IMG/VR virus record: IMGVR_UViG_3300009506_000023
Location: 1,597 to 65,596 of that record
Reading direction: 5' to 3' (one strand)
Source of the DNA: a virus
Length of the DNA stretch: 64,000 nt
Below are positions 2,166 through 49,340 of this stretch, piece by piece. Position numbers and translations under genes: made by a program. Within the stretch, counting starts at the first letter, position 1, and each line of letters opens with the position of its first letter. The notes beneath the pieces are model-generated. The model saw only the letters and a list, made by a program, of their open reading frames with translations, was not told the origin of the DNA and made no database searches.

Positions 2166-5100
2166 GAGTTGGCGTAGCATATGTAGATGTTAGAGTCAAC
2201 ACTACACAATTTAGAACTGATTTAAATAATCTTGAAAATTTAGCTAGGGGTGCGACAACACGAGTAAATGCTGAACTATCAAAGATGGGTGTTGGTCTTT
2301 CTAGTGTTGGCACAGCAAGCAGAACAACGGCAGCTGGCATGGATCAGGTAGCAACTGCTGCTACAAGACAAAGTAAAAGCTTTACTGGTCTACTTCCACA
2401 TGTTGCTGCTGTTACTGCTTCGTATATGGCTATGCGTACTGCTTGGAGAGGGCTTATATCTGCTATAGGGGCTGGCGTCGAATTTGAACAAAAGATGTCT
2501 GCTGTTAAAGCTATAACAAGATCAACAGAAGAGTCTTTTCAAGAACTTACTGTTACAGCAAGAACTATGGCTGCTCAGACAGTATTCACTGCTACAGAAA
2601 CTGCTGAGGCACTCAGATATTTAGCTATGGCTGGATTTAGTGTACGTGAATCAATAGCTGCCCTGCCTGGAGTCCTAAACCTTGCCTTAATTGGCCAACT
2701 TGAACTTCAAAGAGCTACAGATATTGCTACTGACACTCTTCGTGCTTTCGGAATGGAAGCAAGCGACCTTGATAAAGTCGTTGATGTTTTTACAGCAACT
2801 ATTACCAGAACAAATACAAATATTGAGATGATGGGGCAGTCTATGAAATTTGCTGCTCCAGTTGCTAAGAGTCTTGGTTATGAAATAGAGTCTGTTGCTG
2901 CCATGATAGGCATTTTGTCTCAATCTGGTATTAAGGCTGGTATTGCTGGTAGAACTCTCCAACAAGCATTTATTAGGACTATGGATGCTGCCAGAGGTCT
3001 TGGATTAGAAGTCGGCTCTAAGCTTATTGATGTCCTTAAGGCATACAATAAACAACAAGCTGTACTTGAAGGCCAGATAGGTAAGGTTGCTGCTCAAGAA
3101 AAGATTGCTATGCAGATAAAGAAGGACTATGGTCTCATAGCATTGAAGAGCATACTTGTTCTTAAAGACAATATTGATGCATATGAGAAGTTAGAAGAGG
3201 CAGCAAGGAAATCTTCTGGAGAAACACAGAGAGCAGTTGATATAATGATGCAGAATGTTGATTCTGCTTGGAAACTTGTAAAATCTGCTGTTCAGGAAAT
3301 CTCAATAAACATATTCTCAGAATATGGTGATACAATAAGATCATTTCTCGAAGACACAGCAATGTGGTTCAGAGAGAACAAAGATGGTATAACTGAATTA
3401 GCTACTGGGTTTATCACTGGTATAAGCTCAATGATAGATATTATTGGTAGCATAGGAACACCATTAGCATCACTTTTTAGACATCTTTGGGATATTCTAA
3501 GTATATCAGACTCGCTCCCGCCTCACGTTATTGGTGCTGGTGGTATTGGCATGATTGCTTGGATACTTGGTGGGCCAGTATTAGGTGGAGTGGCACTTGG
3601 AATTGCTGGAGTAGATGCTGCTTTGAGAAGTGCTAATTTAAGTATTGGGGATTTATGGAATTATGCTGATGAAAAGATTAGTAACTGGCTGATAGATATA
3701 GCAAGAGGATTGGCTGGATTAGATGAGCCAGGACAGAAGGCTTCTACATCAGTAAGGGGGGTTATAGGTGAGATTGATAACTTGAATGATACTGATGTAG
3801 CAGCTTGGGGGAACAAATGGGCAGAGGCTGCTAGTGATTTCCAATCGGATTCTAGAGAAGTGTCCAACCACTTTCTTGTTATGAAAGCATCAGCTGAAGA
3901 ATTTGCTTCTGCTGCTCCAGATGTCAAGAAGGCTTTTTTTGATGCTCTTGCCCTTGAAGAATATAAACTTAAAACAGAGAAATTTTTTGCTGGATTAAAA
4001 CCATATCTTGTTGAGAAGTATGGAGATGCTGCTGGAGCTGCAATGAAGGCTGGCATGAATGCCATGATTAAGGAGTATAAGGCTGCTGTAAAAGAAGCTG
4101 AGAAAGCTGTTAGTGACCATGAGAAATTTGTACAAAAGACAAATGACATGATCATTAAGGATGAAGGTGATAAGTATGATGTTCTAATAAAGGCTGCTGA
4201 AAAGCACAGAGATGACCTGCTTAAAATACTCAAAGATGGTACAGAACAACAGAAAAAAATACTTATAGAAGCAGGTCTAACAGAAGAAAAGATTATAAAA
4301 GATACAATTGATAGAACAACAATACTTAGAAAACAACAGATAGAGGCTGCTCACGATGCTATTGTATCAGCTTTAGCTGATATTGATAAGATGGCTGTTG
4401 GCGTTGATAAGAAAGCCATAGCTGATATGAAAGCAGTAGTAGATGCCAAAAAAGACCTCCTTAAACAGCTTACCATAGCAGACACTCAATATTTTGATCT
4501 CAAGAAGCAAATTCTTGATGAAGAATATGCTATTGCTATGATGGAGCATAAAACTGAAGCTGAGGCAGCTGCCTTAACTGCTGCATATCATAAGGCAAGT
4601 ATAGAGCTTATGAAAGAAAAGACCCTTGCTCATGGTTCTATGTTAGAAGGCATGATAATAGGCTTACAGGATTATCAAGAACAAGCCCAGATAACTTGGG
4701 GTGAGCAAGGATACAAGCTTGTAACTAATTATATAGGCTATGTAGAAGATGCTTTTAAGGGAACTTTCAAAGACGCCATCCACGGGAATTTCGACGACAT
4801 CGGAAAGCACTGGTCTGATGTCTGGGATAAGATGGTTGACGACTTTGAAAATGCCCTTATTGAGATGGCTGCTAAATGGGCAGTATCCAAGCTTATTCAG
4901 ATACTTACTGGTCAAGGTGAAGGCACATTCTTAGGCTCCATAGGTGGTATAATAAGCAAGATAACAGGAGTTGGTGGAGAAAAAGAATCAATAGCTGGAG
5001 CCTTTGGCTCATTAGGTAGTGGCCTATCAGAAAAAGGGGAAGGGACACTTCTTGGTAGCCTAACTGGTATATCTGATTCTGTTGCTGGAGATGAAGGGTC

Positions 5101-45451: not shown

Positions 45452-46009
45452 TTAAAGATACTTTGAGACTAAAAATTTTAAATTGTCGATGTCTATTTTA
45501 AAAAAATCCTCCAACATATGTTTTGGGTAGGATATGCTACCACCTAAGTTCTTAAAATTATTGCCTATTCTCTTCGATCTCATGTGTCTACGAGCCACGA
45601 ATAAAAGGTCTTTGGGGACACCCTCCACAACCATGGTAGCAAAGTCATAGGATACCTCAGACAGTGCTATTATTGCCTGAATAGCCATAGCAGTGCTCTC
45701 TGGGCTGAGCTTTTTGCTTTTAATATTGAAGTCTTCTAAACATGCCTTCTCATGCTTTCTCTTTTTATAAATGTTCTCATTTCGGTAGAGTGTCTTATAT
45801 TTGTTCTCGACTGCAACATACAGGTATGTAGTAAATTCACACTCGACATCATCTCTCTTTTTTAGACACTCCAAATATGTTACCCACCCTTCTGATATCA
45901 AATCATCAAGGTCATAGATAGTGTTTCTTGAGAATTTATATATGAACTGATGGGCTAATTTGACAATGATAGCTTCGCATTTTTTGAATTCTTCAGTCAT
46001 ATTCGCCAC
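45452..46009 (-). CDS. Putative RNA polymerase sigma factor-like protein (T4 gp55-like size)
   Basis: 185 aa. IYDLDDLISEGWVTYLECLKKRD resembles sigma region 2. Tentative. Confidence 0.3.
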   Translation of the reverse strand: MANMTEEFKKCEAIIVKLAHQFIYKFSRNTIYDLDDLISEGWVTYLECLKKRDDVECEFTTYLYVAVENKYKTLYRNENIYKKRKHEKACLEDFNIKSKKLSPESTAMAIQAIIALSEVSYDFATMVVEGVPKDLLFVARRHMRSKRIGNNFKNLGGSISYPKHMLEDFFKIDIDNLKFLVSKYL

Positions 46010-46426
46010 CTATACCAAAATTAGCAGTCCATCTTTAACAGCTTGTTCCTCTGTCAGCCCTTGCCTCTTTAAAAACTTTTTAATAGTGTCTTCTGTTCCA
46101 CCTTTTCTGTCACTTGCTACACAAGCAATTAGGACATCAGAGTTATCAGCAATATCTGTATTTCTTATGAAACCAGCAGCCTTACCATGCTTATCCCACT
46201 GGGCAGGGAATACTGTTATTGGTACACCGTAAGCATCAGAGAGAATCTCAGCAAATTGGTCACCGCCTTGAGGGCAACCACCGCTTACAATCTCTAAAGT
46301 GAATTCACCCTCAAGCAAGGACTCCTCTGCCTTTTCCCATACCTCAAGGAATGCTTTGCGAATTGCTCCATAGTCATCTTTTTTGTTCCTTCTTCTTGAT
46401 CCAACTATCCCTATTTTCATAGGCAC
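46010..46426 (-). CDS. SLOG / DUF2493-like Rossmann protein (LOG/DprA-like fold)
   Basis: MKIGIVGSRR...VSGGCPQGGDQFAE pattern. Confidence 0.4.
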   Translation of the reverse strand: MPMKIGIVGSRRRNKKDDYGAIRKAFLEVWEKAEESLLEGEFTLEIVSGGCPQGGDQFAEILSDAYGVPITVFPAQWDKHGKAAGFIRNTDIADNSDVLIACVASDRKGGTEDTIKKFLKRQGLTEEQAVKDGLLILV

Positions 46427-46435
46427 CTCCTAAAT

Positions 46436-46461
46436 ACATGCACCCTAAAGGGTGCATGTGT
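46436..46461. terminator. Perfect palindromic hairpin acatgcaccc-taaa-gggtgcatgt between two - strand genes
   Basis: Read directly from the sequence. 11-bp stem with no strong U-run. Confidence 0.3.
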
Positions 46462-46473
46462 TTAAAATCAATA

Positions 46474-46689
46474 TCATTGGACTTTTACCTCCTCTTCTTC
46501 ACTCTTTCCCTTACCATTAAGTATGACCTCAAAGTCTGGGTCGTGTGTTGCATGGTATGTTACTTCGATTAACATACCTAATGACCGTGTCAATTCTATG
46601 AATTTGTTTAGTATAACAATGACCGCTTTGAGTATTATCAAAGTTATCATTCCAGACACTCCAAAAAAGATCATAGTCTCTGTTGACAT
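46474..46689 (-). CDS. Small membrane protein (71 aa)
   Basis: Hydrophobic MIFFGVSGMITLIILKAVIVIL with an acidic C-terminus. Preceded by the operator-like palindromes. Confidence 0.4.
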   Translation of the reverse strand: MSTETMIFFGVSGMITLIILKAVIVILNKFIELTRSLGMLIEVTYHATHDPDFEVILNGKGKSEEEEVKVQ

Positions 46690-46714
46690 TTCAGTTTCCT
46701 TTCAGTTTAGTGTT

Positions 46715-46864
46715 ATGAATTCACGCTAAAATCTATGAGATTTATGAATTCACTGGTTTATAGTTCGTTATATCTCGTTCGGATTGCAAAGCAATCCTCT
46801 CTCGACATAACTCCTATAATTTGCATTCAAAGAAGTATGCATTGCACACAACAAGTGAATTCAC
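46715..46864. promoter_or_regulatory. Operator-like sites: three copies of a GTGAATTCAC-type palindrome at 46715-46724, 46744-46753 and 46855-46864, plus the ggattgc-aaa-gcaatcc palindrome at 46781-46797
   Basis: Site 46855-46864 is a perfect 10-bp palindrome. The other two read ATGAATTCAC (9/10). Two copies lie 20-55 nt upstream of the start codon of gene 46474..46689 on the - strand. Confidence 0.45.
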
Positions 46865-46896
46865 TCGAACCCCCCGAAGTCTGGTCAAGGTCTGGT

Positions 46897-47301
46897 TTAG
46901 ACATCCAACTTCCTGAGTAACCGTTGCATGTCCTCAGCCTTCCCTTTCCTCAAATGTACCCTTCCATACTCCTGTGTATCTAACACTTTCAGACTGTTAA
47001 TTTTCTCTTTAGTCAAGTATGAAAGCAAATCCTTTTGAACAACAGAGACCACAGACATAAAGACACTTATCTTTTTGTCTAACGCATTGTACACTCTTCT
47101 CGGATTGATCCAAGCAGTTGAGTGTTTTGTCACAACGGCATAACCAGAGTTACCTTTAATGCCCCTAATGCCTGTCTCTCTGGCATGCCTTTTGATCTCG
47201 TCTTTGAGAAGATTTAGGCGATTACTTTTTGCCCTGACTTCTTCGTTGAGTCGGCATGCCTCGTCAACTATGCTTTTGATTCCTCTGACTCCTGGCGACA
47301 T
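46897..47301 (-). CDS. Hypothetical protein
   Basis: 134-aa ORF with RBS GGAGGTGATTAG. Confidence 0.4.
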   Translation of the reverse strand: MSPGVRGIKSIVDEACRLNEEVRAKSNRLNLLKDEIKRHARETGIRGIKGNSGYAVVTKHSTAWINPRRVYNALDKKISVFMSVVSVVQKDLLSYLTKEKINSLKVLDTQEYGRVHLRKGKAEDMQRLLRKLDV

Positions 47302-47439
47302 CTAATCACCTCCTTTTGTTAAGTGCTTGGGGCAAGTCTAATCCTGTAGCCAATCTTTTATGCGGCATTGGTCAACCATTTTTGTATTGTTTCCATTAGA
47401 CACGCACTCCAATACTCGTAATTGCCCCAAGCACACTCA

Positions 47440-48228
47440 TTACTGCCTTGACGGATAAGTCTTTTTGAATACGTCACCAAAAGTACCAAGGCTGGTTTTC
47501 TTATTTTGTTTGTGTTTCTCGTAGCCTCTGATGATAGAACCCATCTTTGTAATTCTTTCGTTGAGCTCACCCATCTGCTTCTCTTTGGTTTTCAGTTCTG
47601 CCTTGAGATCATTGATTATTCGGCTGTAATCCCTATCAGCATTTTCAAGACCTCTATTGAGCCTGTTAATTTCTTCGTGCTGAGACTTGATGTAGATGAG
47701 GAACTGCTGGGTAAACATATCTGCGAAGCTTAACTGTTCTTGAGTAAATTCTTTTAAGTCTATAGACTTAATCAAGTCGTCAATCTCGTCAAGGTTCGGT
47801 GGAGCAGAGGATGTCTTATCCAGATCATCATCTTCTCTAACATCAGAGACAGTTTTCTTAGCAGACGACTCCAATGCTCTTAGCCTCGCACTCATCTTAG
47901 CTTTAGTCAAGGCTTTAGATGAAGGCAATTCATTCGGATTACACTTGATGCCCTTTTCTGTTATGCTAAATGGCACCTCACCTTTGCCCTTACCGCTTTG
48001 GTGTATTGGTACTCGACCAGATTTTCTAACAAGACCAGCAGCACTAATTATAGATGAGAAAGCACCCTTGATTTGCTTTAAGCTTATGTCTGGTTGCTTC
48101 TCTTGGACGAGAGATTCAAGATCACTAATCTTGAACTTTAGAGATTTATCCCCATTGCACAATTCCTGTATTGTAGACATAACATAGTACTTTATGGGGT
48201 ACTCGTGTTGTTGTAAATGATGAGCCAT
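47440..48228 (-). CDS. Hypothetical protein with a C-terminal coiled coil
   Basis: 262-aa ORF with RBS AAGGAGGAG. Confidence 0.45.
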   Translation of the reverse strand: MAHHLQQHEYPIKYYVMSTIQELCNGDKSLKFKISDLESLVQEKQPDISLKQIKGAFSSIISAAGLVRKSGRVPIHQSGKGKGEVPFSITEKGIKCNPNELPSSKALTKAKMSARLRALESSAKKTVSDVREDDDLDKTSSAPPNLDEIDDLIKSIDLKEFTQEQLSFADMFTQQFLIYIKSQHEEINRLNRGLENADRDYSRIINDLKAELKTKEKQMGELNERITKMGSIIRGYEKHKQNKKTSLGTFGDVFKKTYPSRQ

Positions 48229-49276: not shown

Positions 49277-49340
49277 GAAGAGGGGGCATTCAGATCCCCC
49301 CCTTTTATGTACAATAGCTACGCTATTGTACATATTTTTC
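49277..49340 (+). terminator. Two tandem hairpins followed by T-runs on the + strand (GGGGG/CCCCCCC stem then tttt; perfect palindrome tgtacaatag-ctacg-ctattgtaca then tatttttc)
   Basis: Read directly from the sequence. T-runs follow the stems only in the + orientation, although all neighbouring genes are on the - strand. Confidence 0.4.

Follow-up and report, generated by a model that had tools for sequence, protein, structure and literature searches.

A cluster of short palindromes and a conserved stem-loop upstream of a putative sigma-factor operon in a metagenomic tailed phage

The stretch of DNA analyzed here (64,000 nt, positions 1,597 to 65,596 of IMG/VR record IMGVR_UViG_3300009506_000023; hereafter the window) belongs to a metagenomic tailed phage with a tape-measure protein, a 1237-amino-acid (aa) DNA polymerase and a ligase. 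No close relative was found among deposited phages, and a contig identical to the window was present in one sequencing run. The locus under study is a 207-bp gap (46690–46896) in a set of genes that all lie on the minus strand, in the order 262-aa protein (47440–48228), 134-aa protein (46897–47301), the 207-bp spacer, 71-aa protein (46474–46689), SLOG/YspA-like protein of 138 aa (46010–46426) and phage sigma factor of 185 aa (45452–46009). Inside the spacer are three similar palindromic sites, named O1, O2 and O3, together with a ggattgc palindrome, which appear to be two unrelated kinds of element. From its sequence and setting, the spacer is probably the control region of an operon for the 71-aa membrane protein, the SLOG-like protein and the sigma factor. 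Our preferred reading, held tentatively and at somewhat below an even chance, is that the palindrome copies (GTGAATTCA(C/T)) are operators for a lineage-specific winged-helix regulator that gates this sigma-factor operon.

A sequence-only reading of the window had placed palindromic sites at 46715, 46744 and 46855 and a ggattgc palindrome upstream of the gene for the 71-aa membrane protein, and all of these were confirmed in the sequence. On the given strand, O1 (46715–46724) and O2 (46744–46753) both read ATGAATTCAC. On the coding strand they read GTGAATTCAT(AA) and belong to identical 12-mers, GTGAATTCATAA (46713–46724 and 46742–46753, minus strand), that are 29 bp apart, whilst O3 (46855–46864), 33 nt past the stop codon of the 134-aa gene, is the perfect 10-bp palindrome GTGAATTCAC. 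All three sites have cores with dyad symmetry, and from centre to centre they stand 29 and 111 bp apart. Counted from the 71-aa gene's ATG (46689), O1 spans -35 to -26, O2 -64 to -55 and O3 -175 to -166; the ribosome-binding site of that gene (AAAGGAAA, 46695–46702, minus strand) follows. A search for further copies found TGAATTCA five times in 64 kb (2.5 expected), with four of the five inside 565 bp, and six sites in the window with at most one mismatch to GTGAATTCAC, five of them inside 45831–46864. In none of 300 first-order Markov simulations of the window did any 8-bp palindrome occur three times within 150 bp or four times within 600 bp. GAATTC was rarer than expected in the window (13 vs 23.9), and as it is scarce and the cluster is local, the palindrome does not occur at a similar density genome-wide. 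The three-site cluster is non-random, beyond what chance would give.

This phage group is rare. Apart from the window's own copy, exhaustive protein searches recovered five homologues of the 134-aa protein, and from these, together with a DUF3150-like neighbor, came four syntenic lineages: L002, L003, L007 (identical to L008) and L006 (identical to L012–L017). Distant homologues of the 262-aa protein yielded L021, L024 and a few short contigs. Viral contigs searched with the 134-aa or the sigma protein alone gave no relatives, and those searched with the exact hairpin and a sigma profile gave nothing beyond one contig that was already known. The flanking genes of L007 share 55–72% protein identity with those of the window and its spacer is otherwise diverged, with a single ATGAATTCAC at the O1-aligned position, within the spacer of a sigma-70-like hexamer pair. 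In the distant L024, the only three occurrences of the word GTGAATT in 6.3 kb fall inside 50 bp, immediately upstream of this lineage's own 262-family gene. They are arranged as direct repeats (GTGAATTATCCCG twice, then TGTGAATTCAAC), a form in which they cannot pair with one another, and this favors a recognised word over RNA helices. GTGAATT is absent from the spacers of L002, L006 and L021; L002 has instead CCTATGATGTGTGA twice and the palindrome TATACTAGTATA, L006 has CGTGCGCGCACG, and the L021 spacer holds an inverted repeat and a true terminator. By these comparisons the GTGAATT word seems to be lineage-specific and to track the 262-aa protein, imperfectly.

We regard it as extremely unlikely that the cluster is functionless, whether it came from a local duplication or from the chance survival of EcoRI-type sites. 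O1 and O2 are indeed exact 12-mer duplicates, and coding sequence accounts for the window's three other copies, but the simulations gave nothing comparable, GAATTC is otherwise avoided, L007 retains the core at the corresponding position and L024 has the word in a cluster. As to the other copies, the one at 46299–46308 is a perfect GTGAATTCAC inside the SLOG gene, on G-E-F-T codons, and this copy and the one at 45831 in the sigma gene both fall on G/C-E-F-T codons. In L002, whose spacer does not have the motif, these sigma codons also contain a perfect GTGAATTCAC. The copy at 59871 (ATGAATTCAC) sits in a small unannotated open reading frame (ORF; about 59810–59963, minus strand) with a strong ribosome-binding site (MPEKCDCCDRESYALTITDDYKKVCSKVCEFIIGF...) and two Cys-x-x-Cys motifs. 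The copies at 46299, 45831 and 59871 are probably coding coincidences, and the intragenic pair at 46299 and 45831 was dropped as auxiliary operators on the grounds of its codons and of the same sigma-codon copy in motif-less L002, although the copy at 46299 might conceivably still serve as an auxiliary site. The sole TGAATTCA outside the locus in the 64 kb is that of the small ORF (59872), which fits a dedicated single-target switch.

Two genes upstream of the 71-aa gene lies that of the 262-aa protein, whose only close homologue is in L007 (42% identity), with distant ones in L024 and L021. An AlphaFold model built on an 11-sequence alignment predicted an N-terminal winged helix of H-b-H-H-b-b order (predicted local distance difference test, pLDDT, 84–91) followed by a long C-terminal coiled coil of 80 residues. 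When this model was compared with the PDB in Foldseek, the winged helices of Fur/PerR, PadR, MarR and forkhead proteins came out on top (E 6e-3 to 5e-2, probability ~1), and the comparison with BFVD returned small phage winged helix-turn-helix and helix-turn-helix (HTH) proteins with E from 2e-3. An earlier, low-confidence model had a non-significant match to the MotA activation domain (E 0.31), which was not counted as evidence. The 262-aa winged-helix protein is more likely to be the regulator than the adjacent 134-aa gene product, which the sequence-only reading had put forward as a possible cognate regulator. When the 134-aa protein was searched against Pfam, PHROGs, NCBIfam and PDB sequences, neither an HTH nor any other DNA-binding family came up (a weak sub-threshold match to Sipho_Gp157 was the only one obtained), and its family occurs with or without the motif, at 61–65% identity in lineages that lack it. 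With no DNA-binding signal and no co-variation with the motif, the 134-aa gene was set aside as regulator.

L002 and L006 carry an unrelated 261-aa protein in place of the 262-aa family (L002 1906–2691, L006 16178–16963), which may be a functional replacement regulator. Its two copies are 26% identical, that of L006 has a weak sub-threshold match to DUF2551, and the gene stands at the position of the 262-aa gene in L002 and just before the sigma gene in L006.

The arrangement had also been likened to a three-operator repressor switch. In the OR and OL regions of phages lambda, P22 and 434, operators of 14–17 bp stand 3–7 bp apart, overlap divergent promoters and lie beside the genes of HTH repressors. 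The window's locus resembles these in having three dyad sites in one control region, with sites that vary among relatives along with the regulator gene, as immunity specificities do. It differs from lambda in its 10-bp cores, spacings of 29 and 111 bp, an adjacent gene without HTH and no lysogeny module in the 64 kb read. We consider very improbable a lambda-like three-operator switch through which the 134-aa product would keep the 71-aa protein, as a holin-like, toxin or exclusion factor, tightly repressed. In its favor, a small membrane-protein gene is preceded by three similar dyad sites, and the neighboring 134-aa gene has no assigned function; against it, the 134-aa family has no DNA-binding match and is well conserved (at the identities given above) in motif-less lineages, the spacings and the co-directional genes are unlike OR/OL, and the downstream neighbors of the 71-aa gene are the SLOG and sigma genes, not lysis genes. 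A regulatory role for the site cluster is still its most reasonable reading, whilst the lambda-type form of it is disfavored by the short cores, the wide spacings, the co-directional genes and a spacer without a sigma-70-like promoter.

The 71-aa protein has one N-terminal hydrophobic helix and a conserved C-terminal motif, IEV(T/S)Y.ATH.PDF, and gave no Pfam, PHROG or NCBIfam match. Homologues are found at the same place in L002, L007 and L021, and L006 has at this position a weakly similar 67-aa membrane protein (17–21% identity). The start of the 71-aa gene, CTGAAAGGAAACTG(A/G)AATG, is nearly identical in L007. In every long enough relative (L002, L007, L006 and L021) the SLOG and then the sigma genes follow. 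The sequences point to a single-pass membrane protein with a conserved cytoplasmic-looking tail, encoded always before SLOG and upstream of sigma; that it has an anti-sigma-like role is speculation. The holin or toxin role first suggested for it was not borne out, there being no match to such families and no lysis-gene neighbors. As the target of the sites the 71-aa gene does sit downstream, but the unit also holds the SLOG-like and sigma-factor genes. The sigma-factor product matched Sigma70_r2 above the Pfam cut-off and scored below the cut-off of the extracytoplasmic function (ECF)-type superfamily model TIGR02937. Between the 71-aa and SLOG genes is a hairpin (46436–46459, minus strand; 10-bp stem CATGCACCC....GGGTGCATG, -18.9 kcal/mol), the sequence of which is conserved in L007 (2594–2617), where it is terminator-like by score; this hairpin may attenuate read-through into the SLOG and sigma genes.

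Under the operator reading, the three GTGAATTCA(C/T) copies would be recognition sites of a phage-encoded dimeric DNA-binding protein. The 262-aa winged-helix/coiled-coil protein would read these sites, and its binding at O1 and O2, 26–64 nt before the start codon, would gate transcription into the 71-aa/SLOG/sigma operon, with O3, 111 bp further up, possibly joined to O1 and O2 through looping. Gating of the sigma-factor operon would in turn time the next stage of infection, whilst the ggattgc stem-loop with its GA-rich loop would act in the transcript, in processing, stability or protein binding. Binding by the 262-aa protein, the sense of its action (repression or activation) and the position of the transcription start are the parts of this scheme that we infer. 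CRP-, ArgR- and MetJ-type boxes were considered for the sites and rejected, as their half-site spacing does not fit.

Several observations weigh against this assignment. All fold matches of the 262-aa protein have E > 0.001, and 10 bp is little for the palindromic site of a classical HTH dimer. The GTGAATT word is not kept in most relatives, and L021, which has a 262-family gene (~22% identity), has no GTGAATT in 6.2 kb. The co-occurrence of word and 262-family gene is three of four lineages with the gene vs none of two without it (Fisher's exact test by hand calculation, p ~0.2), and six informative lineages are too few for this to be significant. We found no sigma-70-like promoter on the coding strand of the spacer, and manual hexamer searches were inconsistent across lineages; as no promoter was identified, the sites could not be positioned with respect to the start of transcription. 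In addition, complementarity between the sites outruns the palindromic cores (O3:O2 at 4/5 positions, O2:O1 at 6/6 plus a bulge), and relatives have analogous closing helices of unrelated sequence, which fits a reading of the spacer as RNA at least as well.

The ggattgc palindrome had been listed together with the three sites, and it is present as described: GGATTGC-AAA-GCAATCC on the given strand at 46781–46797 (GGATTGCaaaGCAATCC), that is, an apical stem-loop GGATTGC-TTT-GCAATCC on the coding (minus) strand, with a 7-bp stem and a 3-nt loop. It does not behave as a fourth operator, being conserved in all relatives with compensatory changes and purine flanks. A hairpin with a 7-bp stem and a 3-nt loop is found in the spacer after the 134-aa homologue in 6/6 lineages including the window, the loop in L003 having 4 nt. 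The stem-loop reads GTATTGC-ATT-GCAATAC in L002, GTATATC-TTT(A)-GATATAC in L003, L006 and L007, and TACCTGC-ACT-GCAGGTA in L021. Six of the seven stem pairs change on both sides and 35/35 cells are paired, which none of 500 shuffles matched, although a double-stranded DNA palindrome would give equal counts and the L021 hairpin was chosen for being a hairpin.

The flanks of the stem are strand-specific. GA brackets it on both sides in five of six lineages (not in L021), and in four lineages a purine-only internal loop lies under it on the coding strand. In L007 and L002 the 5' strand of this loop is GAACGA and the 3' strand GAGAGA, L003 has an 11x11 version, and the window has GAGAGA/GAACGA, that is, the L007/L002 hexamers with strands swapped and still purine. 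The swap retains the same possible G.A, A.G and one C-G oppositions. A purine loop kept on the coding strand despite such a swap is to be expected of a structure that is read by strand, as RNA or single-stranded DNA, and not of a duplex operator. The extended hairpin in the window (element A, 46758–46820, minus strand) comprises the apical stem, the 6x6 purine loop and the basal helices GUUAUGUC/GAUAUAAC and then UAUAGG/CUAUAA, with a folding energy of -24 kcal/mol (z -6.6). A closing helix is found at the same register, with its own sequence in each lineage, in the window (GUUAUGUC/GAUAUAAC, p 0.001), L003 (GUCAUUA/UAAUGAC, p 0.0004), L002 (p 0.015) and L007 (p 0.16), with none in L006 (combined p 8e-6). 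Judged by these comparisons, the ggattgc element behaves as a structured RNA, not as an operator or a terminator. An intrinsic terminator was rejected because a terminator scan made no call and there is no U-tract, the coding-strand tail being GAACGAGA. Rfam 15 gave no match at gathering score in the window, and chance-level matches only at E up to 5 in 46400–47000.

A 65-bp DNA match to N4-like Salmonella phages had prompted a comparison with N4. Promoters of the N4 type are DNA hairpins with a 5–7-bp stem and a 3-nt loop that are read by a giant virion RNA polymerase. The format of stem and loop fits, yet an N4-type DNA hairpin promoter was rejected, since this phage encodes a tape-measure protein and its own large DNA polymerase, of family 405. 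No large ORF of the window matched an RNA polymerase family; a 1822-aa ORF had no PHROG match at all.

The complementarity between the sites can be read in another way, which is the main rival of the operator reading and which we hold to be somewhat less probable than it. The spacer would be transcribed as part of the mRNA of the 262- and 134-aa genes, and O1, O2 and O3 would be mutually complementary RNA segments that form mutually exclusive helices: O3:O2, which closes a domain around the stem-loop, or O2:O1, a hairpin just upstream of the ribosome-binding site. The choice of pairing would set processing, stability, read-through or translation, and might itself be set by a factor on the GA-loop hairpin. 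O3 and O2 are complementary over 14 nt (13/14 paired), and the domain closed by this helix is 120 nt long (46745–46864, minus strand), encloses element A and folds at -42.3 kcal/mol (z -6.9). With the small palindrome AAATCT-CAT-AGATTT between O2 and O1 (46729–46743), which extends their pairing, O2:O1 makes a 16-bp hairpin (-12.1 kcal/mol, z -4.3). Complementarity thus continues past the cores in both helices, and folding is far beyond that of shuffled controls for the whole spacer as well (z -4.5). However, palindrome copies are trivially self-complementary, and these z-scores cannot separate function as RNA from function as DNA. The O2:O1 hairpin also has no U-tract and leaves the ribosome-binding site uncovered.

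Comparison with the relatives also bears on such a leader switch. Long-range helices of unrelated sequence surround the same stem-loop in L007 (p 0.0055) and L021 (p 0.015; combined p without the window 0.007), but they are not significant in L003, L002 and L006. At the place of the window's O2:O1 hairpin, L021 carries an intrinsic terminator, and L007 has a third segment, UAUUAUUU, found by eye only, with which the 3' arm could pair instead. Free covariation is the norm for RNA helices, yet L007 retains the same 8–10-mer, and the direct repeats of GTGAATT in L024 cannot pair; such retention of a word would be predicted for a protein site and not for a helix. The operator reading, which we continue to prefer, and the RNA reading are not mutually exclusive.

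Type II hammerheads lie in the equivalent gaps of the distant L024 and L020 (L020 by eye), so RNA-level events between genes may recur in this phage group. In L024 they are at 550–617, 1354–1421, 2044–2111 and 4678–4745 (Rfam RF02276, 44–56 bits) and in L020 at ~860–925; each is ~30 nt before the ribosome-binding site of the next gene, including the 262-family gene of L024. The window's hairpin shares the niche of the L024 hammerheads, a gap ~30 nt upstream of a ribosome-binding site in a syntenic block, but it has no hammerhead core and no Rfam match at permissive thresholds.

Given this setting, the conserved part of the spacer might be a new class of cis-acting phage RNA that controls entry to the sigma-factor operon, an idea that we find unlikely. 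It would then serve in processing, in protein-dependent antitermination or even in self-cleavage, and the GTGAATTCA copies would be the switching helices of this lineage. The GA-rich internal loop is symmetric and has tandem G.A potential, and in the window and L007 the stem-loop is embedded in a scheme of alternative pairing (1:2 / 2:3, the third segment of L007 being assigned by eye). The RNase III sites of T7 and the N-leader and nut sites of lambda are irregular intergenic hairpins of ~50–60 nt in which a conserved internal loop separates an upper from a lower stem. Those of T7 RNase III and the lambda N leader are matched by the window's element in shape and position only, since it stands before the next cistron and its stems vary whilst its shape is kept; its 6x6 GA-rich loop with tandem G.A potential and its UUU triloop are not known to us as features of those sites.

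Quite improbable, in our judgment, is the explanation that GTGAATTCATAA or its neighbor CTATAAACCA belongs to one promoter, or to two in tandem, for the host or a phage-modified polymerase, so that the repeats are duplicated promoters. CTATAAA, which may be a -10-like box, is commoner than expected in the window (30 vs 16), with 24 of the 30 on the minus strand. In addition, ACTATAAACCA(G/T)TGAA at 46749–46766, just before O2, recurs at 62861–62845 in the non-coding stretch 62043–62899, and in L007, L006 and L024 the conserved hairpin is succeeded by boxes that resemble TATAAAT. Against this, there is no sigma-70-type -35/-10 pair on the coding strand of the spacer and no upstream element shared among the CTATAAA sites; the spacer also gave no nhmmer match to a promoter-like motif that the window has in four copies, though one GAATGCA word is common to both.

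The four-copy motif is ~100 nt long and lies on the minus strand at 57537–57439, 48366–48268, 32724–32624 and 23318–23224 (60–71 bits in nhmmer), with the core CTAGATTGT(A/C)GAATG..G(C/A)GAA(A)TGCAGGAG. Two copies stand 40–45 nt upstream of genes, including that of the 262-aa protein, one follows the last minus-strand gene and one is inside the DNA polymerase ORF. The motif also occurs in L007 (805–872), upstream of a 256-aa gene, and L021 and L006 have look-alikes (CTAGATTGT / GTCGATTGT). It is a candidate family of phage promoters or protein-binding sites; TGTCGAA also resembles a Spo0A box.

By analogy, the logic of the region would be closest to multi-site switches such as that of p4 in phi29 and to the T4 and SPO1 cascades, which run from a factor to a sigma. 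In phi29, p4 binds sites between divergent sigma-A promoters and works with the histone-like p6 in the early/late switch of a lytic phage. The window shares with that system several short inverted-repeat sites over ~200 bp in one control region and one small dimeric phage protein, here a candidate; unlike it, the window has co-directional genes, no promoter was found, and the candidate protein is an unrelated winged-helix/coiled-coil protein. In the T4 MotA and SPO1 gp28 to gp33/34 cascades an early DNA-binding factor of the phage turns on a unit with a small phage sigma factor, and this in turn drives late genes; a similar order of events may hold here. MotA, which depends on AsiA, has its boxes fixed at -30 in dozens of middle promoters, whereas the word found here is confined to one locus.

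Phage sigma factors time late gene expression, and the gating of their own expression is known for few model phages. The spacer offers a compact and tractable control region with a candidate regulator from a previously unannotated family, a defined DNA word and an RNA-like stem-loop. If the pairing of protein and word is true, it would be a new orthogonal regulator-operator pair; if the RNA reading is true, it would be a new structured leader that apparently replaces the hammerhead ribozymes of related phages. The kind of system, a phage control region with a lineage-specific regulator word and a structured leader, is known; its parts are new.

Other non-coding elements were seen in the window. 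A perfect 13-bp inverted repeat (GTGCTTGGGGCAA / TTGCCCCAAGCAC, at 47323–47335 and 47422–47434) encloses 86 nt between the 262- and 134-aa genes and may be another structured leader (47323–47434); L002 and L003 have a 66-aa gene in place of the gap between these two genes. Near the start of the minus-strand gene block, the stretches 61449–61847 (~400 nt) and 62043–62899 (~860 nt) have no coding-strand ORF of at least 45 aa and no Rfam match. The ~1 kb at 57600–58650 (minus strand) is without convincing ORFs and has eight copies of CGTCGAG (12 in the whole window vs 1 expected), set in degenerate repeats of 30–100 nt that include a 28-nt tandem at 58280–58341; it looks like an origin/iteron array or an RNA array. 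Upstream of a 146-aa gene, a hairpin with a 13-bp stem (TATGTACAATAGC-TAC-GCTATTGTACATA, 49306–49334) is followed by a second, G/C-rich hairpin.

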